DNA from: a virus
Taxonomy: Duplodnaviria; Caudoviricetes
IMG/VR virus record: IMGVR_UViG_3300024279_000010
Coordinates: 1 to 50,908 of that record
Reading direction: 5' to 3' (one strand)
DNA: 50,908 nt
The notes under the pieces were generated by a model. It did no database searches, was not told where the DNA came from, and saw only the letters and a program-made list of their open reading frames with translations. The stretch's first letter is position 1; the number at the start of each line of letters is the position of its first letter. This document shows positions 3,986 to 38,464 of this stretch, piece by piece. Both the position numbers and the translations under genes were made by a program.

Positions 3986-4663
3986 TTATTCCGCTTCCAG
4001 AACTGAAGTAACACTATCAATCGGAGGAATGGGACCAGTGTAGCCCAATCCCTGAAGGAAGGGGAGAATTTCAGCTTTCCAGTAATCAAGGAAGTTCTTA
4101 TTCATGAGCGGCGTAAGAGTTCCGCCGTTCCCAAGCTGGATTGACGGAGCGTTGCCGCTCAGCTCAGATGGAGAAACAAGCTTGATCCCTTCAGAATCAA
4201 ATTGAATGTATTGTGTGGGGGTTCCACCGTTCAGCATCAGCCCCACGTAAAGAGCATCGGAGAAATCGTATTGACGCGCGCTCGCCGGGTTCGCCGCGGC
4301 TTGATTGTTCTTCACAGAACTGATATCCCGGCTCGCGAAATTACACAACCCAATGTCTCCGGGAGAAGGATCTAGGATGATTGCATTACCGTTCGAAGAT
4401 CCCAGCCGGAAATAAGGAACGTTCCAAATCGTTGTGTGAGGATAAGGGTTGCCGGCGCTGTCAACTTGATTTACGCAAGGCTTCACATCCACAGTTCCCA
4501 CGGGAGACAATCCGCCGTCATTGGTGCAAGAGATCACTTCAACCAATGTTGCAGTTTGCATCTTCGAAAGAAACTGTTGAACAACGAACGCGATGTTGTT
4601 GAACTTCCCCCATGTACTCCACGGTGTAAGCTGTCCAACTGCGATTTGGCTTTGCGTACTCAT
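3986..4663 (-). CDS. Baseplate central spike (gp138/gpV-like)
   Basis: VDVKP...VPYFRL...DPSPGDIGLCNFASRDIS...RQYDFSDA OB-fold spike motif. Confidence 0.85.
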   Translation of the reverse strand: MSTQSQIAVGQLTPWSTWGKFNNIAFVVQQFLSKMQTATLVEVISCTNDGGLSPVGTVDVKPCVNQVDSAGNPYPHTTIWNVPYFRLGSSNGNAIILDPSPGDIGLCNFASRDISSVKNNQAAANPASARQYDFSDALYVGLMLNGGTPTQYIQFDSEGIKLVSPSELSGNAPSIQLGNGGTLTPLMNKNFLDYWKAEILPFLQGLGYTGPIPPIDSVTSVLEAE

Positions 4664-5541
4664 TGACTCACCACCGCGAGCCCGGTTTTAGTTCCACGAA
4701 TCATCGCGAACCACGATCCATCCGGCTTCTCACTTTCGAGCTTATATGCAATTGTGGTTGCAATCCAAACGCCGGCCGCTTGCGGAATGCTGGTTTTGAG
4801 TTCGAACGATCCTCCGAAAACTAACGAAGGATTAAAGAGAGCTGTGAAATTCACTCCAACCCCGTCGAAAGTTGGATATCCATCCAACCCTGTTTCAGCG
4901 GAGATCAACGGAATGGGTTTCTTTCGTGGCTGATTTTGCGGAGTGATTGCGAGAATATCTCCGTCAACGTAAAGCCAAATTCCCGCCGCTTGCGCGAGCG
5001 TCTTTGCTTGTTCAAGATACGTGTTAGGAAGATATTGATTTTGGAGAATAACTCCGCTTACACCGTTGTTTTCGAATGTGAGTCCCATGTTGCCGGCGAG
5101 CTGGGACATTGCAGCCACAACGTCAATTGGACCTTTGAAGCTCGTTGGGGCAACAGCTTGGAGCTGATTGAAATACGCGGCTTGAGCTTGGATCATCAGG
5201 AAGACATTCGGCATCGTTCGATAGTTGCCCCAAGCGTTGACAATGTTCCCGGAGAATACAAGCGTTTCCTGATTCCCATCGATTGCGAAAACTTGAACTG
5301 TGTTCGGAATGAAGGCTTTCGGTTTCCACTGGAGAGTGGTGATTGCATTCATGTCGCTTTGGGACACTCCGAAAATTTGCGCGCGGAGTGTTCCCATCAT
5401 CATCCCGCCGGCTTTGTCGATATCGACAACCGCGCGAAACCCCTGAAGGGTAATTTGATTGTTGTTCGAAGAGCCGAACTTTCCGGTTCCCAGAGTAATC
5501 AGGAACCGGAGTTCTTTTTTGTTGGCGAAGGATGTTGGCAT
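4660..5541 (-). CDS. Baseplate hub protein
   Basis: 293 aa before the spike; ISAETGLDGYPTF motif. Confidence 0.78.
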   Translation of the reverse strand: MPTSFANKKELRFLITLGTGKFGSSNNNQITLQGFRAVVDIDKAGGMMMGTLRAQIFGVSQSDMNAITTLQWKPKAFIPNTVQVFAIDGNQETLVFSGNIVNAWGNYRTMPNVFLMIQAQAAYFNQLQAVAPTSFKGPIDVVAAMSQLAGNMGLTFENNGVSGVILQNQYLPNTYLEQAKTLAQAAGIWLYVDGDILAITPQNQPRKKPIPLISAETGLDGYPTFDGVGVNFTALFNPSLVFGGSFELKTSIPQAAGVWIATTIAYKLESEKPDGSWFAMIRGTKTGLAVVSQ

Positions 5542-5546
5542 TTGAT

Positions 5547-8500
5547 TTAGTTACTCGCAAGCAATTGAAACTGACTTCCAATGGCGCAATTAACTCCGCA
5601 AGTGAAAGTGATTGATGTAATAGCGGCTTGAGATGTGGGGTTCCATATTCCTCGCGTGAAATACTCGCTGTTATTCGTCTGACTAGATGAAGACGCGAAG
5701 TAGGTTCCGGTTACGTGAATCGCCTTAGGAAACGTGGTATTCGTGTAGTTCGGAATCTCCATCGTTCCTTCAGCGCTTAGCGATCCAAAGATAAAAGCGT
5801 TCGTAATTGCCGCGGCGCTCGCCGCACCTCCGCATGATGTTACCTGACTGCTGCCGTTTCCCTTCATCTCCTCGCAGTTCCACTCGTAATGGGTTCCGGT
5901 ATCTGCGTTGAAGATGGCGTTGATAACTCCGTTACTTGCCATTGCTCCGAAAACTTTCGGATATAAATTCAGGAACGTTGAGGGAATGCCGGTAACAGTT
6001 AATGTCGACCCCGCCGTTGTCACCGTAAAGACTCCGCCTGAGAACGATCCCGCCATCCCGCCGCTTGGAGTCCAAGTCACCAAACTTCCAATATTAAAAG
6101 CATTCCCGCTTCCTGATCCCGCGATGATGTGACCGCTGCTATCTGAAGCAAGAGACGTTTGCGAAACTGGAATTGTCGCACCATTCACCTGATTCGCGTT
6201 CACCACACCGGTTCCAGTTGGCCCAAGAACGGTTCCGTTCCCCATGTTAAAGTTTCCAGCGTTTGCGTTCGTCGCAGGTGTCACCGCGGACCATGCGGTT
6301 GACGTTGTGGCGGACAACCCAACCTGAGCGGCCATTACCACGGTAGGAGTTCCAATGATCGTCCCTGTCGTCACTGCCTTGATATCGAGGAGATCAAGTG
6401 ACGCCGTGGTGAAGTTATGCGAGGTATCGGAGCAAGATGTCGCAGATGCGCCGCTGATCGTGCATGTTAGCGCCGTATCGCTGGCATTCTTTCGCCACGT
6501 ATAAACCGCCGAGTTCCCCACGCCGGGAGCCGCGCTCATTTGCACGGTCATGTTCTGGATGGTGACGGCCGCGGGAGAATCAATGTCAACGTTGGTTTCA
6601 GTGGTACTCGCCGTAGCCCCACCGCCGATGGGGAAGAATTGAGTTCCGCTGAAGGTGAGCGATGGGCCGGAGTAAGTAACGATTCCCGCGCCGGTTCCAG
6701 CCGCTGCGATAGCCGCTTGCACGAACGCTGTGGTAGCAAATTGCCCTGTGCTAGTTCCGCCGGAAGCTGTCGGGCCGGATGGAGTTCCGATAAAGGTAGG
6801 CGAAGCTAACGGCGCGAATCCTGCGATGCTTGCGCCGCTTGGGATCGTGACGGTACCGGTAAAGGTTGGAGAATTGAGTGGAGCCGCGCCAATCGTGTTG
6901 TAGCTGATCTTCCTCGCTACGCTCCCGTTGAAGGTTGAGCCGGAAGCATCGCCGATTCCACTGTTGTCCATCGTTAGAGAGTTTGTAGTGCTTCCGCTAA
7001 CCGTGAGCGAGTTGGTTCCCGTGGTATCAACGAACGTCATACCGTTGTAGCTATTCGTGATATTCGCATACTGATTGTTGTTGCTCGATGCGTCGAAGTT
7101 CACGGCCGGGCCGGTCGCAGCGATGAACAAGTTTCCTTGGAACACGGCATTGCTGGTATTGATGAACTGATTCATCGGCGTTGACCATACCTGCCCATTG
7201 CCGATGAACCTGTTGTGGCTGATATCTCCAATCGAAGCGTTGTATACAAAACCTTGTCCAATACCACTACCGGAGTGTCCCTGACTGAGTTGGAAGGTTG
7301 AATTATGCACATTAACGAGAGAGCCGCTATGTACAAAGAGTGATGGAACGTTTTGACCATTCCAATAGATAGCGTCCGAAATCGAGACGCTGCCTGATCC
7401 CGTGATTTCAGTCCCATTTGTTTCAGAAGAGCGACCCAACGCACACCAAAGATTATTTATATAAACCGTGTTAACTTGCGCCGCTCCTCCACTCAGACTA
7501 AAAAATTCACACTCCGTATAGGGAGAATCGTCCGTTTGATTATTGATACGAACGTCACCCCCAAGCGTCCCGTTTCCGCTGATCCCCGTTCCAACCGAAT
7601 CTGTGAAGTTGTGATCCATATTCAAATCTTGAATTTGACCAGAAAGTTTGTACCCAAGCGAAGCCGATTGACTTGAGCCACATCGATTAGAGACGTTGTT
7701 ATTTTCAACCCTTTGTGAAAAATAACCCGTCGAACCGCCTTGCAAATCAAATCCAACGTAGGCAAATCCAGCGCTTCCAACGCCGGTATAGCACCACGAA
7801 ACTAGATTGTTTGTGAAGGTTCCCTGAGCCCCCGATGGATTAAACAAGCTTTGAATTCCTATGGCAGAATCAGCGAAATTATTTCTCTCGACAACCGCCG
7901 AACTGGTGTAATTCATTCTGAGCGAGATCGATCCGGAAGATGGAGTATTCGTCCGCGCCAACATACAGTTCTTTAGAATAAATCCGTTAATCGGAGTGGA
8001 TATGGAACCCCCGTTGGCAAATAACTGTGTAACGCTCGCGCTATTCGTGAAAATGACTGTTGGAAAGCCCCCTTGTGAACCAGACCATCCATAGGTTCCG
8101 CATTCAACACCTGTATTCTGAGTGGTAATTGTCGGACCAGTTTCGGAGCGATAAACACCGGGAGCGAAATAACAAACGCCTAAAGTGATTGAAGATTGAC
8201 AAGCTGTCCATGCCGCTGAGTTGTCAGTTCCCGTCCCTCCGCCTACTATAAATACTCCATCAGCCACAGCGCCGAACCAGCCAACGGACTTCCAGTAATT
8301 CTGACTGTTTACAACTAGCGTTCCTCCGCCGTTTATGAAGACTTGCTGATTATCCGGCGCGAGAATCGGACCGTTAATCGTGATCGTTTGGCCGGCATTG
8401 TAAGTAATCGAACCACCATCCGAAAACTGGAGCGCGCAATTCTTAGGAGTGCTGATTGTTGTAGGAGAAAGAGGGATTGTAATCTGAATCGTTGTGGGAC

Positions 8501-9224
8501 CACTTCCACAAGCTGTCACCAGCGCCGCTAACGTTGTGGCTGAATTTACCGTTGGGTTCGTGGTTCCAGTTCCGCCGAATGGAGCGCCGCTTCCTCCACC
8601 AGTTGTACACGTGCCATCTTTTTGAAGAATTGAATCGGTTGCGCAACTCGAATCGAACCAGTAAGCGGCAATCAATTGCGAGAGAGTTCCAACTGCCGTC
8701 ACGTTCAAACTGGTTCGATAGACGAAACCGTTTCCGCCGGGATCAGCGAGCCCGCTTCCAATCGGAGGAACGTTGAATGGAGTTCGAACATCAGAGATGG
8801 AAGTAATCGTTGAACTCCCCGCAACAACAACAGCGAGCGGAATGTCAGTCCCAACGAAAGCTGTTGTCTTCACGCTTACAGCGCATGACGAAGTTGTATC
8901 GAGATAGATCCGGTTCGTTGCGCTCGCTGTGAGAGCTTTAGTCCCGCCAACATACGAAACGATTGTTCCCGAACCACAATTCACTGTTCCGGGACCAACA
9001 TTAATATTCAAACCCGTTGCGGCCGCAATCGTCCCGCCGCTTCCATTTGCAATTGAGAGCTGAGTAGGCCAATAGCCCGGAGCAACGCCATTATCATACT
9101 TTGCGTTTACAGCATAGATCGGCGCGGTTTGAGTCTGAGGGTTTTGAGCATGCACAAGGCATACCGCGAGAAACATCCACAATCCAATGAACCACAAAGC
9201 GAGCTTGATCATAAGTTCCCTCAT
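5547..9224 (-). CDS. Large tailspike/fibre (beta-helix, pectate-lyase-like) with N-terminal signal peptide
   Basis: SVGWFGAVADG...TDNSAAW...YFAPGVY beta-helix start; APLASPTFIGTP...FATTAFVQAAI fibre repeat; hydrophobic N-terminus ending VHA-QN. Confidence 0.82.
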   Translation of the reverse strand: MRELMIKLALWFIGLWMFLAVCLVHAQNPQTQTAPIYAVNAKYDNGVAPGYWPTQLSIANGSGGTIAAATGLNINVGPGTVNCGSGTIVSYVGGTKALTASATNRIYLDTTSSCAVSVKTTAFVGTDIPLAVVVAGSSTITSISDVRTPFNVPPIGSGLADPGGNGFVYRTSLNVTAVGTLSQLIAAYWFDSSCATDSILQKDGTCTTGGGSGAPFGGTGTTNPTVNSATTLAALVTACGSGPTTIQITIPLSPTTISTPKNCALQFSDGGSITYNAGQTITINGPILAPDNQQVFINGGGTLVVNSQNYWKSVGWFGAVADGVFIVGGGTGTDNSAAWTACQSSITLGVCYFAPGVYRSETGPTITTQNTGVECGTYGWSGSQGGFPTVIFTNSASVTQLFANGGSISTPINGFILKNCMLARTNTPSSGSISLRMNYTSSAVVERNNFADSAIGIQSLFNPSGAQGTFTNNLVSWCYTGVGSAGFAYVGFDLQGGSTGYFSQRVENNNVSNRCGSSQSASLGYKLSGQIQDLNMDHNFTDSVGTGISGNGTLGGDVRINNQTDDSPYTECEFFSLSGGAAQVNTVYINNLWCALGRSSETNGTEITGSGSVSISDAIYWNGQNVPSLFVHSGSLVNVHNSTFQLSQGHSGSGIGQGFVYNASIGDISHNRFIGNGQVWSTPMNQFINTSNAVFQGNLFIAATGPAVNFDASSNNNQYANITNSYNGMTFVDTTGTNSLTVSGSTTNSLTMDNSGIGDASGSTFNGSVARKISYNTIGAAPLNSPTFTGTVTIPSGASIAGFAPLASPTFIGTPSGPTASGGTSTGQFATTAFVQAAIAAAGTGAGIVTYSGPSLTFSGTQFFPIGGGATASTTETNVDIDSPAAVTIQNMTVQMSAAPGVGNSAVYTWRKNASDTALTCTISGASATSCSDTSHNFTTASLDLLDIKAVTTGTIIGTPTVVMAAQVGLSATTSTAWSAVTPATNANAGNFNMGNGTVLGPTGTGVVNANQVNGATIPVSQTSLASDSSGHIIAGSGSGNAFNIGSLVTWTPSGGMAGSFSGGVFTVTTAGSTLTVTGIPSTFLNLYPKVFGAMASNGVINAIFNADTGTHYEWNCEEMKGNGSSQVTSCGGAASAAAITNAFIFGSLSAEGTMEIPNYTNTTFPKAIHVTGTYFASSSSQTNNSEYFTRGIWNPTSQAAITSITFTCGVNCAIGSQFQLLASN

Positions 9225-10252
9225 GCGTACACCAAAATTTTCGCGATCTTTCCAACGTCCGATGCTTCAAGATAAACGTTCGCTCCGTCAAACGCTGGAG
9301 TCTGAGCCCGAATGCTTCCATCCGAAATCATCAGAATCTCAATCCGGGATGGAGCTGAAGTAAGGAAATGCGGAACGCTGAAGGCTCCGGGAGCCGGCGA
9401 AGTGACTCCAAGGGTAGTTGCGGGAGCATTGATGTTGAACGCTCCCGTAGCGGGCCTATAGACACTCACGGTTGCGGTTTGGCCGGCTTCTGTAGCTATC
9501 AGATAAACGTTCGTAGAATCGAATAGCGGAGTTTGTCCCAGAATCGCGCCATCTGAAGTTGGAAGGATCTCCACCAGCGCCGGCACTATCCCCAGCCCGT
9601 GAGGAACGCTGAAGTTTCCAGAGCCGGGAGAATTGACTAGTAGAGTTGCGGCCGGCGTTTGAACCGCGAGCCCGGAAGCTGCAACAGTGTAAACGTAGAT
9701 CTTCGCAGTAACCCCGGTATCTGAAGCAACGAGATTGATGTTCGTAGCGTCCGCAAAACCGGCTTGCCCCCAAATCGATCCGATTGGTCCGGAGCCTACC
9801 TGAGTTGGAACGATCTCAATCAGGAACGGGACCGTTGCGAGTCCGTGGGCTTCGCTGAAGTTGCCCGGAGCTGGAGCAGTTACATCAAGAATTGCAGAGA
9901 GCGTGAGAATCGAACTTTGCGTGAGCGCCGCGGCTGAAGGAATGAATTTCGGAAGCTCGTTCGGGAACAGGTAAACCAAAAACCAGCGAGTATTAAAGCC
10001 GGTATATTGAGGATCGTCCGTCCCCTGAGTATCGATGAAATAGAGATTCCCAAGGAAGCCGTCCCAAGAGTTACACGAATCGAGCGCAACTGCATTGTGA
10101 GCAAGACAAGCTAAGCAACGGTTCACACCATCAGAATTCAAATCAACGAAGATCTTCCCGTTGCGAAGGTAAATCGAGATTTGGCAGTTTTGACCGTCAA
10201 GAACACACAACACTTGCTGAGAAGGAACGGGCTGAATGGGGATCACTAACAT
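9221..10252 (-). CDS. Baseplate protein with three C-terminal ~80-aa repeats
   Basis: N-terminal IPIQPVPSQ...LDGQNCQI...FIDTQG baseplate motif; three GxFSxxHxLxxxP...EI repeats. Confidence 0.72.
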   Translation of the reverse strand: MLVIPIQPVPSQQVLCVLDGQNCQISIYLRNGKIFVDLNSDGVNRCLACLAHNAVALDSCNSWDGFLGNLYFIDTQGTDDPQYTGFNTRWFLVYLFPNELPKFIPSAAALTQSSILTLSAILDVTAPAPGNFSEAHGLATVPFLIEIVPTQVGSGPIGSIWGQAGFADATNINLVASDTGVTAKIYVYTVAASGLAVQTPAATLLVNSPGSGNFSVPHGLGIVPALVEILPTSDGAILGQTPLFDSTNVYLIATEAGQTATVSVYRPATGAFNINAPATTLGVTSPAPGAFSVPHFLTSAPSRIEILMISDGSIRAQTPAFDGANVYLEASDVGKIAKILVYA

Positions 10253-13487: not shown

Positions 13488-14003
13488 TTATTTTCCGGCG
13501 CGAGCTAACCAGTTCGCGAGGTATTTCGCGTCCGCCGGGTTCTTCAAAACTATATCCCGGTAATGCTGTGAACGCACAGATCTAAATGCAGCCGCAAGCA
13601 TATCAGGGTTGCAGCTATTAGCCCCGTGGAGCGTCGCTGGTCCCCATACGCCATCAATCCCAAGGGAAACCCCTGAGACGTTCTCCACGGCCGTCTGTAG
13701 GAGCTTTACGCCGGTTCCTTCGCCCATGTTGAACTCAGCATCAAACGCGCGCTTCGCCACTTCATCAGATAGAACTTGATTGAACCACGGGGACCAGAAG
13801 CGGAGCTGATAGAAACTCTTCACAGCGGCCGGCCGCTCCGCGGGATCAAGAGCGGCGATTCTTTCAAAATCTTGAGGGAATGAGGCGCTGTTTATTCCGC
13901 TGAGAGCGTGAGCGCCGGGAGGAGCATCCGGAACGATTGCGTATTGCCGCTCCGGATCTTCAAAATTCATTGTCCAATTGAACGCTACGTCAAACGAAGC
14001 CAC
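13488..14003 (-). CDS. Endolysin, GH108-like with C-terminal peptidoglycan-binding region
   Basis: FDAEFNMG, LLQ, IDGVWGPAT, KYLANWLAR motifs; GGGAGG RBS. Confidence 0.8.
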   Translation of the reverse strand: MASFDVAFNWTMNFEDPERQYAIVPDAPPGAHALSGINSASFPQDFERIAALDPAERPAAVKSFYQLRFWSPWFNQVLSDEVAKRAFDAEFNMGEGTGVKLLQTAVENVSGVSLGIDGVWGPATLHGANSCNPDMLAAAFRSVRSQHYRDIVLKNPADAKYLANWLARAGK

Positions 14004-14080: not shown

Positions 14081-14518
14081 TTACAGCAAACTAGGCTGGA
14101 TATCTTGCCACTCGATATTAAAATCGATGGGCTGGAGAACCTTCGCGCCGTCCGGGATCGGCTTGTAATCCTTCAGCGTCCCATTCAGGCAAGAGAAGCT
14201 TTCTCCAGTAGACGGAAGAACAATGGTCCCACTGAAGACAATCGCGTCCCTGTTCGCCTTCTGAGCGCGAGCGATTGCATTGAAGACTGAACGGCTGGGG
14301 CTGTTCGCCTGAAGCGAAACCCCTTGCTTGATCATCGCGGGAACCCATCCGGAAGCCTTCAATCCGTCAACACCAATCATGCTCTCAGTGGTTTCCTGAT
14401 TGTCCGTGCTCCAAGCCTTCTCCGCGGAGAATCCCTGAATCTGGATCGGCGCGGGAAAGATCCCCGGAACCGTCAGAGTGAAAACCGCATTTGCGCTAGT
14501 AATCGTTCTATCAGCCAT
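14081..14518 (-). CDS. Tail tube protein
   Basis: RTITSANA...GVDG...LQANSPS motif; 145 aa after the sheath. Confidence 0.85.
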   Translation of the reverse strand: MADRTITSANAVFTLTVPGIFPAPIQIQGFSAEKAWSTDNQETTESMIGVDGLKASGWVPAMIKQGVSLQANSPSRSVFNAIARAQKANRDAIVFSGTIVLPSTGESFSCLNGTLKDYKPIPDGAKVLQPIDFNIEWQDIQPSLL

Positions 14519-14532
14519 CAGGTTCCCCCGTT

Positions 14533-15093
14533 TTATTTCAGGTTCAAAATGTGTTTCTTCAAATTGTGATTACTGCACAGCGTTTGAAACCCTTTCGGAA
14601 ATCCTTCGCGAATGAGATTATCGTAAAGCGCCGCTCCTCCGCCCCGTCCGCTTTTGGTATATTGCCGTCGATGTTCAGCGCCGTTGTTCTCAAGATGATC
14701 CAAAGTCAACATATCGAGATCCGTCACTTCACATCTGTCCCAACAACACTGAAGTTTCTCTTCAAATCCGTAATGCGTGAGAACTTCAGTTTTAATCCTT
14801 AGATGACGTTTTCGATTTATATCGTTCAATCGGTTCGTACAATTTTCACATCGAAGAATGCCATCTCTTGACTTATCACCACAATTGATACAAATTCCCA
14901 ATTTCAGACATTTAGCGCGAAGTTCCTTCCCATACTTCTCCGCCGCGTTCATACACTTTTGACAATCAGTGAAACCTTTTACAGCCGGGTTATCACACTT
15001 AGTGCATAAACCTAATTCAGCCCTTTTCTTTCGTCTTTCTTTGCGATATTTAACCGCATCGAAAGTGCTTACATGATTTGCGCTATATCTCAC
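14533..15093 (-). CDS. HNH-type homing endonuclease with N-terminal CxxC repeats
   Basis: LTLDHLENNG...FQTLCSNHN; AT-rich; sits between sheath and tube. Confidence 0.75.
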   Translation of the reverse strand: MRYSANHVSTFDAVKYRKERRKKRAELGLCTKCDNPAVKGFTDCQKCMNAAEKYGKELRAKCLKLGICINCGDKSRDGILRCENCTNRLNDINRKRHLRIKTEVLTHYGFEEKLQCCWDRCEVTDLDMLTLDHLENNGAEHRRQYTKSGRGGGAALYDNLIREGFPKGFQTLCSNHNLKKHILNLK

Positions 15094-23298: not shown

Positions 23299-24102
23299 TC
23301 AAGCGCTTCTTACACCGGGAAGCACACTCCGGGACACACAGCGACAACGGATCTTTTGCCCCGGCTGGATATATTCAAGCTGTCCCGTTCGCTCATCTTT
23401 GATCAGGCAACCCTCGCGGATGTTGTAAACGCGGCCGCTCGCCTTCTGATGTTCCTTACGTGGATGTTTTCCACCACCAGAGTGCATCCAGATTGCCTTT
23501 TGAATTCCCAACTCCAGCCGGCGCGCGTTCTCAACTGTAGAGTTCAATTTATTACTTTGATCTTGTGCGATAAGCTCAGCGGAACCGGCCGCTTTGGGAT
23601 ATAACTTCCGGATCTCTTTTACCATTGTTTCGAGATCCCGGCCGGAAGCATACGCGCGCGTGACGATCCCTTCAGTCTGAGCAAGATAACGTTGAGGAAT
23701 CGATTTGATCAGCGCAACGTTCTCAGCCACAGATGCATTTAGAGCGTCTTTCATCGCACGATCAAGCTTGAACTTGATGCTGATTCCAGCATCCCGGAGA
23801 GCCGATTTCATCGCTGAACTGGTTGCGTAATAGTTCCCCTTGACATAAGCATCAGCGATCCGCGGAGCCGCTTCATCGAATTTCCGTTGCCATTTCTTCG
23901 CGAGCGCGCGGAACTTCGCAAGCATGCGCTGTGATGGAGTGGCATCCATTGCGAGCGCCGGCGGAGACGCGCGGTATTCCGCTCCAATCCAGTACAAAAC
24001 GGAAGCGTCCATTTCATCAATGAGAGCCATCAACGAGCGTCGATACTTCAGCCGTAGACCAACGTTCGGCCGAATCGCGCGAAGCTTTTTTACTGAATCC
24101 AT
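23299..24102 (-). CDS. Head morphogenesis protein (SPP1 gp7/Mu F-like)
   Basis: ENVALIKSIP, IAQDQSNK, WMHS...PRKEH, PGQKIRCRC. Confidence 0.88.
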   Translation of the reverse strand: MDSVKKLRAIRPNVGLRLKYRRSLMALIDEMDASVLYWIGAEYRASPPALAMDATPSQRMLAKFRALAKKWQRKFDEAAPRIADAYVKGNYYATSSAMKSALRDAGISIKFKLDRAMKDALNASVAENVALIKSIPQRYLAQTEGIVTRAYASGRDLETMVKEIRKLYPKAAGSAELIAQDQSNKLNSTVENARRLELGIQKAIWMHSGGGKHPRKEHQKASGRVYNIREGCLIKDERTGQLEYIQPGQKIRCRCVSRSVLPGVRSA

Positions 24103-24923
24103 TGAACGATTACAACCCCCGGCGCGCCATTTCCGCCCGCGGTTGAACTGTTGGAAGAACCACCACCACCACCGGAGCCGAACGCTAATCCGTTCGAACC
24201 GTTGCCCACAGTACCGCCGTAAAAGCCGCGTCCACCACCACCAAAGATACTCGCTCCCCCACTTACGCCGGCTGATGTGGAATTCGAAGTTCCCGTTGAA
24301 CCATCTCCGCCGCTTACGGAATCCGCATCTCCGCCACTTGGAGTACCCCCAGCGCCACCATAATTCGCATTGGGTGAGTTACCCCCAACTCCGCCGGCAC
24401 CAGCCCCACCAGTGACCGTTGAGATCGTCTGAGTACCGCTTGCAATCGATGAATTCGTTCCGTTGCTTCCGCCGGTTCCAGCCGCGCCGGTTCCCCCAGC
24501 GCCAACGGTTACGATGATCGTATTTCCCGCGGTGTATCCGCTTGAAGCGACCTTTGCAGCCGCACCAGCTCCACCACCAGAACCAGACACGCCGGAAGCC
24601 CCTCCGCCCCCAGCTCCGCCGGCTCCCACAATCGTCCATTGGAATACTGTGCTTGAAGTGATCCCAGCCGGAATTGTGAATGTTCCTGTGGTTGTGAAGA
24701 TTTGCTTATGAAGCTGTTGAACCACCAGCGGGCAAGCCGTATCGTAAAACGTCCCATCCGAGCACAGCGCGTTACCGGACGGGCCAACGGTCCCGTTGAC
24801 TGTGTATCCACTCGTTGAATCGACAGAGGAGAAGATACCGGGAACAGCCGCAATTGTGGTTACAACAGCAACGATCATCGCGAGTGTTGCGAGTCCGATT
24901 TTACTTCCGCGATTGAGCTTCAT
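24090..24923 (-). CDS. Glycine-rich fibre/adhesin-like protein with signal peptide (277 aa)
   Basis: Start set at ATG 24923 (GGGGAG RBS, ATGA overlap); MKLNRGSK then hydrophobic stretch; FTTTGTFTIP...GAGGAGGG...GVVIVQW Gly-rich domain. Confidence 0.78.
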   Translation of the reverse strand: MKLNRGSKIGLATLAMIVAVVTTIAAVPGIFSSVDSTSGYTVNGTVGPSGNALCSDGTFYDTACPLVVQQLHKQIFTTTGTFTIPAGITSSTVFQWTIVGAGGAGGGGASGVSGSGGGAGAAAKVASSGYTAGNTIIVTVGAGGTGAAGTGGSNGTNSSIASGTQTISTVTGGAGAGGVGGNSPNANYGGAGGTPSGGDADSVSGGDGSTGTSNSTSAGVSGGASIFGGGGRGFYGGTVGNGSNGLAFGSGGGGGSSNSSTAGGNGAPGVVIVQWIQ

Positions 24924-25075
24924 CGATCTCCCCCAAATAGTGTTTGTCCAAGAGCATTCCCAACAGCGCTCAAAGCTCGCGAGTACCACGGGACACGGAC
25001 CGCGGCGCATGGTCCCTCATGTCCCGCTTCGCGCGTACATCTCCAACCGGCCGGCGGTTTCGTACAAATCATCAT
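24920..25075 (-). CDS. 51-aa Cys/His protein (not in the ORF track)
   Basis: MMICTKPPAGWRCTREAGHEGPCAA...; ATGA overlaps at both ends. Confidence 0.7.
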   Translation of the reverse strand: MMICTKPPAGWRCTREAGHEGPCAAVRVPWYSRALSAVGNALGQTLFGGDR

Positions 25076-32235: not shown

Positions 32236-32397
32236 ATGATCAACGAACCGGAGAAATCGAATCCGCCGCTAGCGAGCTTCAAGTTCATCGCATGGATGAT
32301 GATCACGATTTCTGTGGGCTGGTTCCTTGTTCATTACGTTGCACATTTACAGATGGAATTCAAATCTCTGGGAGAAAGGCTGGTAAGTTTCCTATGA
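32236..32397 (+). CDS. Small membrane protein
   Basis: One hydrophobic segment; ATGA coupling. Confidence 0.5.
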   Translation: MINEPEKSNPPLASFKFIAWMMITISVGWFLVHYVAHLQMEFKSLGERLVSFL

Positions 32398-32645
32398 ACG
32401 ATCCGATTATCAAACTACTTGTTATTCTCATTGTGGTCGCAGCTTTCGCGCTTTGGGTTGCGGTTCAACATGAGATCACCAAACACCATCGCACCATGCG
32501 CGAAGCTCAGAAGCGCGAAGCTGAAGCTGAGTATCATAAGCGGCTCGCCGGCAAGTATGCAGCCACAATGACGGAAGAGGATCGTAAGTGGTATGCGAGC
32601 CTTCCCGATTGGGACCGTCTTCCGATTTTCAGAACGAAGTCATGA
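32394..32645 (+). CDS. Small membrane-anchored protein
   Basis: MNDPIIKLLVILIVVAAFALWVAV then a charged helix. Confidence 0.6.
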   Translation: MNDPIIKLLVILIVVAAFALWVAVQHEITKHHRTMREAQKREAEAEYHKRLAGKYAATMTEEDRKWYASLPDWDRLPIFRTKS

Positions 32646-32704: not shown

Positions 32705-33310
32705 GTGCTTTACACAACACTCGAACTACTTAAGAAACAATCCGCGTGCCTGGAAGGCATGAAAACTTTAATTGATTCTTTGGCTCCGAATTATCCCAAA
32801 GACAAACAAATTTCTCTTGCTCACATTTTTAAATCAAATGGTTTTGATCACGCGATGTGGGCTCTCCGTGCAACAACGGTGGATGCTCGAAAATTTACCG
32901 CTCATATGGCAATTGATTTTGCTTTTAGGGTTATCGATAACTTCGAAAAGCAATTTCCAGACGATAAGCGGCCGCGAACAGCGTTGGAACAAACCGAAGC
33001 ATTTTTGGACGGGAAGATAACCTTAAAAGAATTGGAGAGCGCAGAGAGGAGCGCAGCGAGCGCAGCGAGGAGCGCAGCGTGGAGCGCAGCGTGGAGCGCA
33101 GCGAGGAGCGCAGAGAGCGCAGCGAGGAGCGCAGCGTGGAGCGCAGCGTGGAGCGCAGAGAGCGCAGCGAGGAGCGCAGAGAGCGCAGCGAGGAGCGCAG
33201 AGAGCGCAGCGAGGAGCGCAGCGTGGAGCGCAGCGTGGAGCGCAGCGAGGAGCGCAGCGGAGTCTGAAAACGAAAAAATCTTTAAGAAATGGATATCCAA
33301 AAAACTATGA
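32705..33310 (+). CDS. Imm5-like phage protein with SAAx tandem repeats
   Basis: FEKQFPDDKRPRTALE motif; 20 SAAW/SAAR/SAE-type units. Confidence 0.72.
   Translation: MLYTTLELLKKQSACLEGMKTLIDSLAPNYPKDKQISLAHIFKSNGFDHAMWALRATTVDARKFTAHMAIDFAFRVIDNFEKQFPDDKRPRTALEQTEAFLDGKITLKELESAERSAASAARSAAWSAAWSAARSAESAARSAAWSAAWSAESAARSAESAARSAESAARSAAWSAAWSAARSAAESENEKIFKKWISKKL
33038..33262 (+). repeat. Coding minisatellite: 20 units of 9 or 12 bp, each starting AGCGCAG
   Basis: Read directly from the sequence. Confidence 0.95.
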
Positions 33311-34533: not shown

Positions 34534-36933
34534 TCACAGCGCCGTTTTCCTATGGTGGAGTTCAAACGGCAAGTTCAAGTGTGGTTGATTCTTGTTCGCG
34601 CTCTCATAGAACTTCTGAACTTCCGCGGCGCTTGTGAGCTGTTTTGCAAGGCAAGTATCGTGAATATAAAGCCGCGGCTTTCCCCCGTCTGGTAACACAG
34701 CGTTGTTAACGCGGCCGTCGATCAGCGCCGGGTGGTGGTGATACCCCAGCCCTTCCAAAATCTCACGCCGGCGAAGATGGTTGATCTTCCGCATGAGTCC
34801 CATTCGATCTAACAACCTATCAAGATATATCGATGAGATGAATCCCCCGTTGAATCCCGGAAGCCCCTGAGCTACGCTCTCCAAGATTTCTTGTTCGATT
34901 GTTCCCTGAGATACCGATAGAGCTTCCCCGGTAGTGGAGCTGATTGGGGCTCGTTGACATTCACCGGCCGGGTTAAGCTCCACGGGGATAACATACGAAT
35001 GAAGGAACTCAGATACAATCGCGTAACCATCAGCACGAAGCCAGTTATAGAGATTGGGGAAATAGTCTCCTCCTATTCCGTCTCGCTGGAGATGGCTCGA
35101 TTCTTGTTGAGCGGAAAACAACACGCAAAATCTACGATCATTTCCAGTCTTTTTAATTGCGTCTTTGTGGTTGCTGTTGAACATGAAATTTCCACAGATA
35201 TCAGCGGACGTTTGATCAACTCCCTTTGCTTCGATCTCAAGCCCATCCCCTCCCGTGATCATCGGTTTCAGTTCTTCGATCACTTCCCGGCGCGCGTCTG
35301 GAACATAGATATCTTCAACCGCATAGAAGATCTTTCCGACCATCCAAGCATTGAATTCCTTCGCGAGCTTTGAAGCTTTCGGCCAATGAACGTATCTTCT
35401 CCCCACAGCTTCAGCCACACAGCGGGTGAACAGCGTTTTCCCGTTTCCCTCAACCCCTTGGAGCAACGGAGCCCATTGGAACTTGACTCCCTTGTGCTGA
35501 ACCACAGCCGCCATATATGACAGTAAAATTACCTGATCCGTGGGGTCGGGGAGGATGCGCGCGAGATGAGCAAGGAACGGAGAAACGTCCCCTTCTTTCC
35601 GGGGAACATCAACCGGGACGTAAGTATTCACAAAGCTTTGACCGTTGCGCATCACGATCTCGCCGGCTGGGAGATCCGGCCGGAAGCAAATCCCATTGAC
35701 CATCGGGGGACGGAGCATCTGTGATTGTGTGAAAGCTTCCCACGAATCACGGGTTGTTCGCTCGTTCCCAAAATCCATCTGAAAGGTATAACCCCCGAAG
35801 TGAACCTTGAATTGTTCGGGCTTCAGGATGTGTCCCCCCGGAATCAATACGCGATGGGTATCTGTGATATAGATCATCCCTTTGAACAGCTCTTGCTGTG
35901 GCTGGAGCCCAATCATCCTCATGCCGCTTATCACTTCGCCTGATACGCTGGGGGCGCTCAGAGACGGGCCCGCGGCCGCTGGGAGGGTAGAAGCTTGGAA
36001 TATGTCAATCTGTCTCGCCACACAGCCCAGAATCGTTCGGCGGAGGTATGTCCCATATTGACCATCCGGACGTTCCCACTTTTCCCGAACCAGTTTGGAC
36101 TGATTCATAATCCGTTCTATGCGTTCGCAGTTCTTACCAGTCCAAAACGCGAGATGTTGCGCAAGCGCTCCATCGGCCATGCTGTTATCAAACGGCCGGC
36201 CGGGATCGGGATAGCATCTTCCTAGAGCTTTCTCATCAGCTAGGAAGAGATCCGCGAACGATGCTTTGTTTCCGAATGCTGAAGCCACTGTTCGCGATTG
36301 CATCGCGCGCCGGATAAGCTCCCCATCGTCTTCGATCCCACGCCACTCCGGAACCGGCGCGCAAGTCCAATCCGTTTCGGAGATCTCCGAACCGTCCGGA
36401 GGAAAATACGTCGCAATGAGAGAGGATAGAACCGGCGTGAAATCGCATGTGAGATCTCCGGAAGCGTTGATTCCCGTAAGCGCCGCGAACCGTCCCTTGT
36501 GATAAAACTCCGCATCCAACGCTTTGTTTTTGCATGCATGCGCCGGCGGAATCCCACTCCCGAATAAATGAAGCCCTTTGCCGGATTGCGAAACTTCAAT
36601 TGCACAGCCGGCGAGTAATTGACACATTTGGAGCGCATGAGGAGCCCAACCCCCGACCAACAAACAATTATCGATATCCAAGAACCAGAAGGGGTCATTT
36701 TCCGTGAAAACAAATCCGAGCCCGAAAGGTTCACCCCACGTCTCAACCAATTGCGAAGCCCGTTCAAACGTGATCCAAATTGAGGAGTTGTGAGCATCAG
36801 CGACCCTCCCGGTTGCATAGTCCAAGGGCAATTTATCTGTTTTTCCCGGCCGCGTTTGGCTGGGAACAGCTTTGTAAACGATCCATTGTTTAAACGCGCC
36901 AAATGGCGCAAGCGCCGCCGGAAGTTCTTTCAT
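34534..36933 (-). CDS. Primase-polymerase (NrS-1-like) fused to an SF3 helicase (DUF5906-like)
   Basis: FLDIDNC, EVSQSGKGLH; GVEGNGKT Walker A; DRRF; ATGA overlap at 36933. Confidence 0.88.
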   Translation of the reverse strand: MKELPAALAPFGAFKQWIVYKAVPSQTRPGKTDKLPLDYATGRVADAHNSSIWITFERASQLVETWGEPFGLGFVFTENDPFWFLDIDNCLLVGGWAPHALQMCQLLAGCAIEVSQSGKGLHLFGSGIPPAHACKNKALDAEFYHKGRFAALTGINASGDLTCDFTPVLSSLIATYFPPDGSEISETDWTCAPVPEWRGIEDDGELIRRAMQSRTVASAFGNKASFADLFLADEKALGRCYPDPGRPFDNSMADGALAQHLAFWTGKNCERIERIMNQSKLVREKWERPDGQYGTYLRRTILGCVARQIDIFQASTLPAAAGPSLSAPSVSGEVISGMRMIGLQPQQELFKGMIYITDTHRVLIPGGHILKPEQFKVHFGGYTFQMDFGNERTTRDSWEAFTQSQMLRPPMVNGICFRPDLPAGEIVMRNGQSFVNTYVPVDVPRKEGDVSPFLAHLARILPDPTDQVILLSYMAAVVQHKGVKFQWAPLLQGVEGNGKTLFTRCVAEAVGRRYVHWPKASKLAKEFNAWMVGKIFYAVEDIYVPDARREVIEELKPMITGGDGLEIEAKGVDQTSADICGNFMFNSNHKDAIKKTGNDRRFCVLFSAQQESSHLQRDGIGGDYFPNLYNWLRADGYAIVSEFLHSYVIPVELNPAGECQRAPISSTTGEALSVSQGTIEQEILESVAQGLPGFNGGFISSIYLDRLLDRMGLMRKINHLRRREILEGLGYHHHPALIDGRVNNAVLPDGGKPRLYIHDTCLAKQLTSAAEVQKFYESANKNQPHLNLPFELHHRKTAL

Positions 36934-37685
36934 CGCGGTAGTTCCTGATATTCGCAGAGAACCCCACATTCAACGGAAGGTTCAACGTCTTCAGCCACAT
37001 CGATAAGGGAAGGGAGTTCGCTGAGAAAGAATCGTTTCTTCTTTCCGTCGCGAGCTTGCTCCAGCATCTTCACTCCTAGCGCGCTTGATTGTCGAACACG
37101 TTTCCAAAAAACTTCAGGGAAAAGGTTCAAAACCCTCCGCCAATATTTAGGCGAAGTAACCTTCACGCATCCAATACAATTGTTGTTTTTGAATCCAAGA
37201 TCGTACATGATTGGCCGTTTAATTCCAGCGTTATTCAGGATCACAAAACAATCATCTTTTGTGGTTTTGTTCTCGCTCAAGATCCATTCCGTATCGATAT
37301 CGTTTTGGCTATCGAAGCGGACAATGCGGCTTTGTTCATCGTGAGTCAGCCCGAAGATATGAAGATCTCCGGGGAGCTGGAAATTTTGACGGGGAATTTT
37401 TTTCATTTCAACGGTACACAGAGCCCCTTTAGGTCCGCTCATATACCGGCGCTGTTCGATCACATCATCGACCGTCGCGTAACGCTCAGATTTAATTGTG
37501 AGTATCTTCTTTCCAATCCAATTGCTCACGTCACGCATGAAGCGCGCGTTGTCGGGATGCTCCGTTGCGAGCGTATCGTTATAAATCACAAGGGCATTTG
37601 GATATTTCTCAACAGTCTTTTTTGCCGCAACTGCTGAAGCGGCTCCGCATGAGAACCAACAAAGAACTCTTCCATCCGTAAGCAA
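36930..37685 (-). CDS. PAPS-reductase-like adenine nucleotide alpha-hydrolase
   Basis: WFSCGAASAVA PP-loop variant; EHPDN; CTVEMK; NNNCIGCVK; CGVLCE. Confidence 0.8.
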   Translation of the reverse strand: MLTDGRVLCWFSCGAASAVAAKKTVEKYPNALVIYNDTLATEHPDNARFMRDVSNWIGKKILTIKSERYATVDDVIEQRRYMSGPKGALCTVEMKKIPRQNFQLPGDLHIFGLTHDEQSRIVRFDSQNDIDTEWILSENKTTKDDCFVILNNAGIKRPIMYDLGFKNNNCIGCVKVTSPKYWRRVLNLFPEVFWKRVRQSSALGVKMLEQARDGKKKRFFLSELPSLIDVAEDVEPSVECGVLCEYQELPR

Positions 37686-38013: not shown

Positions 38014-38464
38014 GTAAGAGCCTTTCGATGTGCTGTTGTGTTTGATTGAGTTTATCAATTGACCAGCGCCGCGCGGCCGGGTGATCAATCATATAAAACT
38101 TGAAAACTCCAACTCCGGAAAGATAAGCCGTCCCGTCAGTGGCTCCGGTTGGCATGGATGCGATTTGCCCGAAGGTATATTGAGCAACCTTCCCACAAAC
38201 CAAAAGCAAATCCATTCCTTCATGTTTCAGGTAACTCAGATTTTCTTTTACCCATTCGGGATCAGGTTTTCCGTGGTGTTCCGCTGATCTTTGGACAACG
38301 CGGCAACAATTGGTGACAAGTAGAGAGCGAGTCCCCACAAGGCGATACAGCCTACGGCCGCTATGGTTATCAGGATTGATTCTGAAATAACGCGGAGCAT
38401 CTTCCCCAACTTCATTGAACCCCCTCCATGCCCACATTGAATCGAGTAAAGCAACGATGTTCAT
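38006..38464 (-). CDS. Uracil-DNA glycosylase superfamily-like protein
   Basis: SGRRLYRL, VTNC, LLLVCGKVA, DHPAAR pattern. Confidence 0.6.
   Translation of the reverse strand: MNIVALLDSMWAWRGFNEVGEDAPRYFRINPDNHSGRRLYRLVGTRSLLVTNCCRVVQRSAEHHGKPDPEWVKENLSYLKHEGMDLLLVCGKVAQYTFGQIASMPTGATDGTAYLSGVGVFKFYMIDHPAARRWSIDKLNQTQQHIERLLRA

Follow-up and report, generated by a model that had tools for sequence, protein, structure and literature searches.

Textbook knowledge holds that the particles of tailed phages assemble in the cytoplasm. How, then, is a tailspike/fibre protein to be understood that is encoded among baseplate genes and starts with what looks like an export signal? We address this question for a 50,908-base stretch of DNA (the window), which is the complete IMG/VR virus record IMGVR_UViG_3300024279_000010 (CheckV, 100%). 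An original prediction, made from this DNA alone, had proposed that the protein, here called the spike, is exported and oxidatively folded. Comparison with its relatives supports this proposal through the conservation of the leader, a leader-linked cysteine pair (Cys83/Cys114), the parity of cysteine counts and the gain and loss of cysteines in pairs. On the basis of these sequence comparisons we consider it highly probable that the spike is exported by Sec, cleaved before Gln27 and oxidatively folded in the periplasm. For the whole route, which includes docking onto the cytoplasm-built baseplate at lysis via a leaderless adaptor fused to the baseplate plug, we estimate a probability of about one in two.

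5547..9224, minus strand: whole gene of the leader-bearing tailspike/fibre protein (P0001, 1225 amino acids), an open frame including the stop codon
9147..9224, minus strand: leader, residues 1–26, consisting of the n-region MRELMIK, a 17-residue h-region and the c-region VHA, with the predicted cut before Gln27

The leader of the spike

The N-terminus of the spike runs from MRELMIK through an uncharged h-region, LALWFIGLWMFLAVCLV, to VHA, which is followed directly by QN. The n-, h- and c-regions of a signal peptide that had been seen here are indeed recognizable: Kyte–Doolittle 19-residue means reach 2.3, the n-region has a net charge of +1 and residues −3 and −1 are small at the predicted cut (V-H-A). 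The ATG that starts the spike gene and the TGA that ends the plug gene overlap as ATGA. An alternative ATG at codon 5, preceded by an AGGGA motif, also retains the leader, and the database holds the frame from this codon as a 1221-amino-acid protein (P0002).

A family alignment was made of the window protein and 24 database relatives found by a word-based search with residues 1–500. These relatives are 683–1150 amino acids long, and many are encoded on contigs of about 50 kb. Approximately the first 150 residues are common to all of them, while the distal parts differ. A leader is present in 25 of the 25 aligned members, with a length of 10–36 amino acids and an h-region of 10–23 residues, and the net charge of the n-region is at least +1 in 23 of them. 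Residue −1 is alanine in 17 members, glycine in four and proline in four, the last having an alternative VPA or IPA site two residues upstream. The leader sequences are mutually unrelated, whereas Gln27 is invariant and the next 125 residues are 44–76% identical, so that the conservation boundary sits exactly at Gln27. When genome and viral contig collections were scanned more widely, 103 loci emerged; of the 41 unique ones in which the conserved mature start is present, 40 have a hydrophobic core within the 30 residues before the conserved glutamine. A leader that is kept in kind and not in sequence, a sharp boundary and a small residue at −1 give this segment the look of a cleaved signal peptide. 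As judged from sequence, the N-terminus of the spike is a predicted Sec-type signal peptide, and its properties are family-wide.

Other readings of the N-terminus were discarded. A Tat signal was rejected as the twin arginine is absent. A lipoprotein signal was likewise rejected: LAVC in the leader, with valine at −1, does not form a canonical lipobox, and a cysteine is missing from the leaders of most homologues (none in 19 of the 24 database homologues; one in P0003, P0007, P0009, P0020 and P0025, and again in several locus leaders). A true start downstream of the leader was dismissed because there is no usable ATG, none being in frame from codon 17 to about residue 421, and because conservation begins at Gln27.

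Two loci (L004:11731–12621 and L055:13437–14633) have, right after the spike gene, a gene for another leader-bearing protein, whose start, ...AQ..T.KWY.VN, is similar. This protein could serve as an exported partner or as an assembly factor; no such gene occurs in the window. At two further loci (L044:6888–8666 and L065:7662–10919) the spike N-domain is internal, after other modules, and retains the cysteine pair. The L065 protein has its own leader at the extreme N-terminus, and in L044 the N-domain is preceded by at least 371 residues of open frame.

Pairing and parity of the cysteines

The spike has 21 cysteines, of which one lies in the leader and 20 after it: residues 83, 114, 194, 206, 239, 263, 342, 351, 375, 420, 478, 515, 572, 594, 921, 931, 1117, 1131, 1209 and 1213. 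The ten neighbouring pairs counted in the original prediction are confirmed at these positions. Read as consecutive pairs, the within-pair gaps total 208 residues, compared with 922 residues between pairs, and a ratio this low was obtained in 0.026% of 200,000 trials with randomly placed cysteines. The ordinary fibre of the phage (959–1777) contains no cysteine, as had been noted.

Even cysteine counts, reportedly following work by Dutton and colleagues in 2008, are an established test for exported, disulfide-bonded proteins. The mature parts of 58 non-redundant family members have an even count in 48 cases and an odd count in ten, and none is without cysteine (binomial p = 2e-7); for the subset that comprises the spike and the 24 homologues from the database, the figures are 23, two and none. 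The same count for 11 leaderless relatives of the N-domain gives three even, seven odd and one without cysteine, with a cysteine content of 0.5%, and for 40 other genes of the window nine even, 18 odd and 13 without. A HMMER search with residues 152–1225 against 1.8 billion representatives gave 4768 matches to the body of the spike, the best 149 of which were classified (131 begin with Met; 20 are partial or unclear). Among these best matches, 70 leader-bearing homologues comprise 65 even, five odd and none without cysteine (binomial p = 1e-14), whereas 59 leaderless homologues comprise 24 even, 26 odd and nine without.

Individual pairs also tend to come and go together. In 15 homologues aligned over the β-helix, Cys342 and Cys351 are both present in ten and both absent in five, and Cys478 and Cys515 are both present in five and both absent in ten; neither pair is ever split. 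Cys239/Cys263 is split in two of the 15. From the parity bias and the co-occurrence of pairs it follows that export and paired cysteines coincide, both in the family and in its wider relatives.

Leaderless relatives as a natural control

The leaderless relatives of the N-domain (L020–L024 and L062–L104) occur in Burkholderia and Paraburkholderia prophages and in many viral contigs. Their N-domain is homologous to that of the spike at 30–41% identity, but they have no leader, no cysteine pair, no bias towards even counts and no upstream adaptor repeat. They start straight at the domain (MS.STT.LD...KE.TAN..FDAASPA), with a hydrophobic segment in none of the 22 unique sequences. In a joint alignment of 63 N-domains, 41 leader-bearing and 22 leaderless, 38 of the former have both Cys83 and Cys114, and none of the latter has either of these cysteines. 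Sequences that fell outside the automatic sorting behave in the same way: both cysteines are present in the leader-bearing L016, L017, L019, L049, L053 and L065 and missing from the leaderless L062, L067, L090 and L103. The gene upstream of the spike relative in L072, the sole leaderless locus scanned in this respect, encodes a tail host-specificity protein of the RcGTA g15 type. The name DUF2793, considered for the leaderless relatives, was dropped since Pfam gave no such match in four of the four tested.

Domain architecture and predicted folds

A Pfam search with the whole spike gave no family. PDB sequence searches with the spike and with the N-domain family profile gave no match, nor did tblastn of the spike against 50,697 phage records at 1e-5. 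A word-based search with residues 215–760 returned only the protein itself, although HMMER over every protein did find relatives. The architecture was established from alignments, AlphaFold2 models and Foldseek and PHROG matches.

8769..9146, minus strand: mature N-terminal anchor domain, residues 27–152 (alignments, AlphaFold2, Foldseek)
8583..8768, minus strand: linker module, residues 153–214 (GLADPGGNGFVYRT...), with Cys194 and Cys206; it recurs with both cysteines in P0003, P0008 and P0027
6990..8582, minus strand: predicted right-handed parallel β-helix, residues 215–745, of polysaccharide lyase/epimerase/tailspike type, with ten cysteines
6702..6965, minus strand: phage fibre repeats, residues 754–841 (APL.SPTFTGTP ... 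ATTAFV); phrog_2631, E = 6e-7, and phrog_7032, E = 3e-6
5550..6701, minus strand: distal part, residues 842–1225, matched by many representatives at 44–68% identity

The anchor domain consists of the highly conserved segment 27–65 (QNPQTQTAPIYAVNAKY.NG.APGY) and a β-rich shoulder domain that contains Cys83 and Cys114. An AlphaFold2 model of residues 27–160, built with 63 sequences, has a mean pLDDT of 73; ten-residue blocks score 81–97 over residues 67–146 and low over residues 27–66. When this model is compared with the PDB using Foldseek, the top match is the tail fibre of cyanophage A-1(L) (PDB entry 8kec; E = 5e-5, 28% identity). Weaker matches are to the lactococcal p2 receptor-binding protein, Bordetella phage BPP-1 Mtd, SPP1 gp22 and an archaeal virus fibre. 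The N-terminal part of the p2 protein is called its 'shoulder'. By its modelled fold the N-domain of the spike corresponds to this anchor, or shoulder, end of virion receptor-binding proteins.

The β-helix expected from the start motif in the sequence is borne out by the AlphaFold2 model of residues 215–800 (16 sequences; pLDDT 77, pTM 0.77), in which a right-handed helix extends to about residue 740. Foldseek matches, with E-values from 9e-6 to 5e-4, include the mannuronan epimerases AlgE4 and AlgE6, a GH87 glucanase and a K1 capsule lyase, as well as the HK620, Sf6 and CBA120 tailspikes and the K5A lyase, these last four with a probability of 1.00. Identity to the solved enzymes is 9–14%. 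The model thus suggests that the β-helix binds or cuts a polysaccharide. The fibre repeat that had been pointed out coincides with the PHROG matches to residues 754–841, both families being labelled 'tail fiber protein'. Beyond it, the distal part is formed by a widely shared domain (GIVTYSGPSLTFSGTQFFPIGGG..., with Cys921 and Cys931) and a C-terminal domain with the pairs Cys1117/Cys1131 and Cys1209/Cys1213. Taken with its models, the spike is a modular tailspike, predicted to be composed of a leader, an anchor, a cysteine-bearing linker, a helix, fibre repeats and two distal domains.

The baseplate operon and a candidate adaptor

Pfam and PHROG scans show a myophage late operon on the minus strand in the left half of the window. 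Its genes encode, in order, the terminase, portal, protease, major head protein, sheath and a tape-measure protein with a glucosaminidase domain; then a Dit-like protein, a plug of the Pam3 gp18 type, the 1225-amino-acid spike, a hub of the E217 gp41 type and a spike-like protein; and finally a gp25-like protein, Baseplate_J, DUF2612 and the 272-amino-acid fibre. The plug, hub, gp25-like, J-like and DUF2612 wedge genes are present in that order, and matches above the cut-offs to PF22479, PF22759, PF04865 and PF11041, together with a match to phrog_120, confirm a simple myophage baseplate of the Pam3/E217 type. The placement of the spike inside the baseplate operon is therefore correct: it lies between the plug gene and the hub gene. 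The order plug–spike–hub is retained in five of five loci with the same backbone.

9953..10252, minus strand: plug domain, residues 1–100 of P0029 (Pfam PF22479 Pam3_gp18, 46 bits against a cut-off of 24)
9224..9910, minus strand: three repeats of about 70 amino acids, residues 115–343 of P0029, the candidate leaderless adaptor for the spike
4660..5541, minus strand: baseplate hub gene, immediately downstream of the spike gene (Pfam PF22759 E217_GP41, 61 bits; phrog_196)

The upstream protein P0029 has 343 residues, in which the plug domain is followed by the three tandem repeats. The repeat motif (APGNF..H.LG..P...TS.G.IW.Q...D.TN.YL.ASD.G) has no cysteine. In 27 of the 41 unique leader-bearing loci, no more than 300 nt separate the end of the repeat from the spike gene downstream, and in seven the repeat lies farther upstream; it is found in none of the 22 leaderless loci. 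Many of the loci with the repeat have unrelated tail backbones. In the siphophage-type prophages L003, L004 and L005 it forms the C-terminal end of a small leaderless protein. We infer that the APGNF repeat is an adaptor that receives the spike and that the conserved segment 27–65 is the docking element.

A second protein of the structural region with an N-terminal membrane or signal segment (MKLNRGSKIGLATLAMIVAVV...) is encoded at 24090–25010 (minus strand), flanked by the portal and MuF-like head protein genes. Behind the segment comes a domain rich in glycine (Pfam Gly_rich_2, E = 2.6e-12), and the C-terminal end matches PHROG 'tail fiber' families. A homologue occurs in just one of five related phage records, and the protein is therefore not a member of a conserved system. 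Between the sheath gene and the structural gene at 14081–14518, a 186-residue open reading frame with 13 cysteines (14533–15093, minus strand) has no family in Pfam or PHROG.

The right half of the window encodes the phage's own DNA polymerase, primase, helicase, exonuclease and single-strand-binding protein, and no integrase was found among the open reading frames scanned in the window. An Imm5-like immunity protein (Pfam PF21805, E = 2.9e-9) is encoded in the early region at 32705–33310 (plus strand), and a PAPS-reductase-like protein (phrog_424, E = 1.5e-34) at 36930–37685 (minus strand) adjoins the primase.

The probable host and the conserved glutamine

Records labelled Acidobacteriota, Terriglobia or Acidobacteriaceae account for 18 of the 23 genome loci. 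Several of the related loci lie on contigs of 110–442 kb and so are prophages. The phage is a contractile-tailed phage of about 51 kb, for which these relatives suggest a host in the Acidobacteriota (Terriglobia). The Terriglobia are diderm. Proteins of the DSBA family (PF01323) score above the Pfam cut-off in two of two Acidobacteriota genomes with a related prophage, although this family has non-periplasmic members as well.

The invariant Gln27 directly after the predicted cut resembles the Q-rule, that is, glutamine directly after the signal peptidase I cut, which the available text of its report describes for Bacteroidetes only, without mention of Acidobacteria (PMC5837995). The host sample here hints at such a habit: in 320 kb from two genomes (L110–L125), a small sample examined with a crude custom filter, 12 of 33 signal-like N-termini have glutamine as the first polar residue behind them, compared with 15% expected (p = 0.002). 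Host signal-like N-termini often end in A followed by Q, as in ...LLAQS, ...AWAQD and ...SFAQE. In 42 of the 70 leader-bearing body homologues, the first polar residue behind the leader is glutamine. Such sequences suggest that a Q-rule may exist outside the Bacteroidetes, in these Acidobacteriota hosts.

Proposed route of the spike and its alternatives

The leader, its coupling to a cysteine pair, cysteine parity, the folds and the gene order are supported by comparison; export, cleavage, disulfide bonds, docking at lysis and a polysaccharide substrate are what we infer from them. The spike would be synthesized with a host-type Sec signal peptide and would cross the inner membrane, where signal peptidase I would cut before Gln27. 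By analogy with the Bacteroidetes, Gln27 might then cyclize to pyroglutamate. Folding in the periplasm would involve up to ten disulfide bonds and probably produce a trimer. At lysis, holin and endolysin would open the envelope and the finished spike would meet the cytoplasm-built particles, onto which its conserved N-terminal segment and shoulder domain would dock via the leaderless repeats that extend the baseplate plug protein. On the virion, the β-helix would bind or cut host surface polysaccharide. Such late joining is possible, as P22 tailspikes do so in vitro, and holin holes connect the cytoplasm and periplasm before the outer membrane goes.

The endolysin of the window (13488–14003, minus strand; GH108-like with PG_binding_3) is encoded within the tail module. 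Its lack of a membrane segment suggests that it is released with the help of a holin. Candidate holins are small open reading frames with a single membrane segment, at 687–959, 38248–38454 and 32292–32645.

Docking at lysis is preferred because the anchor is conserved while the rest is swapped, because the position between plug and hub is fixed in all five same-backbone loci and because the adaptor travels along. The same export evidence would equally serve the main alternative, a spike that never joins the particle and instead works, in the periplasm or after release, as a free depolymerase or polysaccharide-modifying enzyme. Such an enzyme could ease release by loosening the exopolysaccharide of the host, keep progeny from being trapped by destroying the receptors on debris, or block superinfection, and its anchor-type N-domain would be a relic or be needed for folding. 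The β-helix is as close to polysaccharide lyases and epimerases as to tailspikes, and as the phage carries a separate, ordinary cysteine-free fibre, there is no need to place the spike on the particle. In the available text of its description, Pantoea stewartii WceF is a Tat-exported, trimeric, tailspike-like β-helix with a P22-type head-binding domain that acts on exopolysaccharide without a virion, so that an anchor-type domain alone is no proof of a place on the virion (PMC7949094). What makes a free enzyme less likely than docking is that the N-terminal 125 residues are conserved across unrelated backbones while the rest is freely swapped, which is the pattern of a part obliged to fit a partner; in addition, the position of the gene within the baseplate operon is fixed, and it is accompanied by a leaderless repeat domain that is here fused to a baseplate protein.

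Alternatively, the hydrophobic N-terminus could be no working export signal at all. The spike would then fold in the cytoplasm, in line with textbook assembly, the segment being buried in the baseplate or tethering the protein to the membrane, and the cysteines would oxidize after release. An h-region of 17 residues is long for a cleaved signal, and the segment may be an uncleaved membrane anchor. A structural segment would nevertheless be expected to be conserved in sequence, while the leader is the least conserved part of the protein; the basic n-region and a small −1 residue are retained in 21 of the 25 members, and, given this basic n-region and an uncharged flank, the positive-inside rule places the C-terminal 1200 residues outside. 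Oxidation after release also fails to explain why the cysteine pair and even counts occur only with a leader. A purely cytoplasmic reading thus fits the data poorly, and we regard it as improbable. Still further down the scale, and very improbable in our view, is a double life in which an exported share serves as a free enzyme or surface protein and a leaderless share, made from an internal start, joins the particle in the cytoplasm. A GTG at residue 24, just ahead of the predicted cleavage site, could provide this start, but it is not preceded by a ribosome-binding motif, homologues differ in the residue at this position, the stretch that follows has no in-frame ATG until far into the β-helix and a leaderless share would give no selection for paired cysteines.

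Several further observations weigh against export, oxidative folding and docking via the adaptor. Among the 15 β-helix-aligned homologues Cys572/Cys594 is split in six, and Cys375/Cys420 is conserved in none. Odd cysteine counts occur in ten of the 58 family members and five of the 70 leader-bearing body homologues, three of the 41 leader-bearing N-domains lack one or both of Cys83 and Cys114, and the adaptor repeat was not found in seven of the 41 unique leader-bearing loci. On the host side, the breadth of the DSBA family and the coarse basis of the glutamine count have already been mentioned.

Relation to known systems

The spike shares its modular construction, in which the N-terminal anchor is conserved and the distal part can be exchanged, with the HK620, Sf6 and CBA120 TSP3 tailspikes, the A-1(L) fibre (8kec) and the p2 receptor-binding protein. 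The first three match the fold of its β-helix body and the other two that of its shoulder-type N-domain. To our knowledge none of these proteins has a signal peptide, and all fold in the cytoplasm. The spike differs from them in its family-wide leader, its leader-linked cysteine pair and its even cysteine counts. WceF, as far as the available text of its description goes, differs in being encoded by a bacterial gene in an exopolysaccharide cluster and in having a Tat signal (PMC7949094), compared with the phage baseplate-operon gene, Sec-type leader and adaptor seen here.

A further parallel to the proposed route is pIII of filamentous phages, a receptor-binding virion protein with a signal peptide and periplasmic disulfides. 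Filamentous phages are, however, assembled at the membrane and extruded, in contrast to the cytoplasmic particles of tailed phages. The T4 antiholin RI is also said to be a phage protein that uses the host Sec system. The signal-peptide endolysin Lys44 of phage fOg44 and the SAR endolysins are further cases, as given in the available text of PMC6116005. Like the spike, these are late phage proteins that use Sec, but they are lysis proteins and not parts of the virion. The available text of a 2018 review of phage envelope-breaching enzymes treats signal peptides for endolysins only. The main text of the paper on the cultured Acidobacteria phages Tunturi 1 and 2 contains no mention of signal peptides, tail fibres, tailspikes, mass spectrometry or structural proteins (PMC11924767). 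Full-text literature searches, with subscription journals and supplements outside their reach, found no paper in which a receptor-binding protein of a tailed phage is described as exported by Sec.

Implications for tailed-phage assembly

This study contributes a myophage case, a defined adaptor candidate and the contrast between relatives that have both leader and cysteine pair and relatives that have neither. The N-domain exists both with leader, cysteine pair and adaptor and without all three, and this clean internal control makes the idea testable. Tentatively, we suggest that the spike stands for a broad class of soil-phage receptor-binding proteins built in two compartments, which would use Sec, oxidation by host Dsb proteins, a pyroglutamate cap, a periplasmic wait and an evolved APGNF adaptor onto which they snap at lysis.

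If the proposed route is correct, it would add an assembly step tied to lysis to the textbook picture of all-cytoplasmic tailed-phage assembly, and it would explain the presence of disulfide-stabilized host-recognition gear in phages of acid soils. A signal peptide in an annotation would no longer count against a structural role, and cytoplasmic expression of such spikes, whether as enzymes, for diagnostics or for host-range work, may yield misfolded protein. Should leader, cysteine pair and adaptor have been gained together from a cytoplasmic ancestor, this family would record a datable switch of assembly route.

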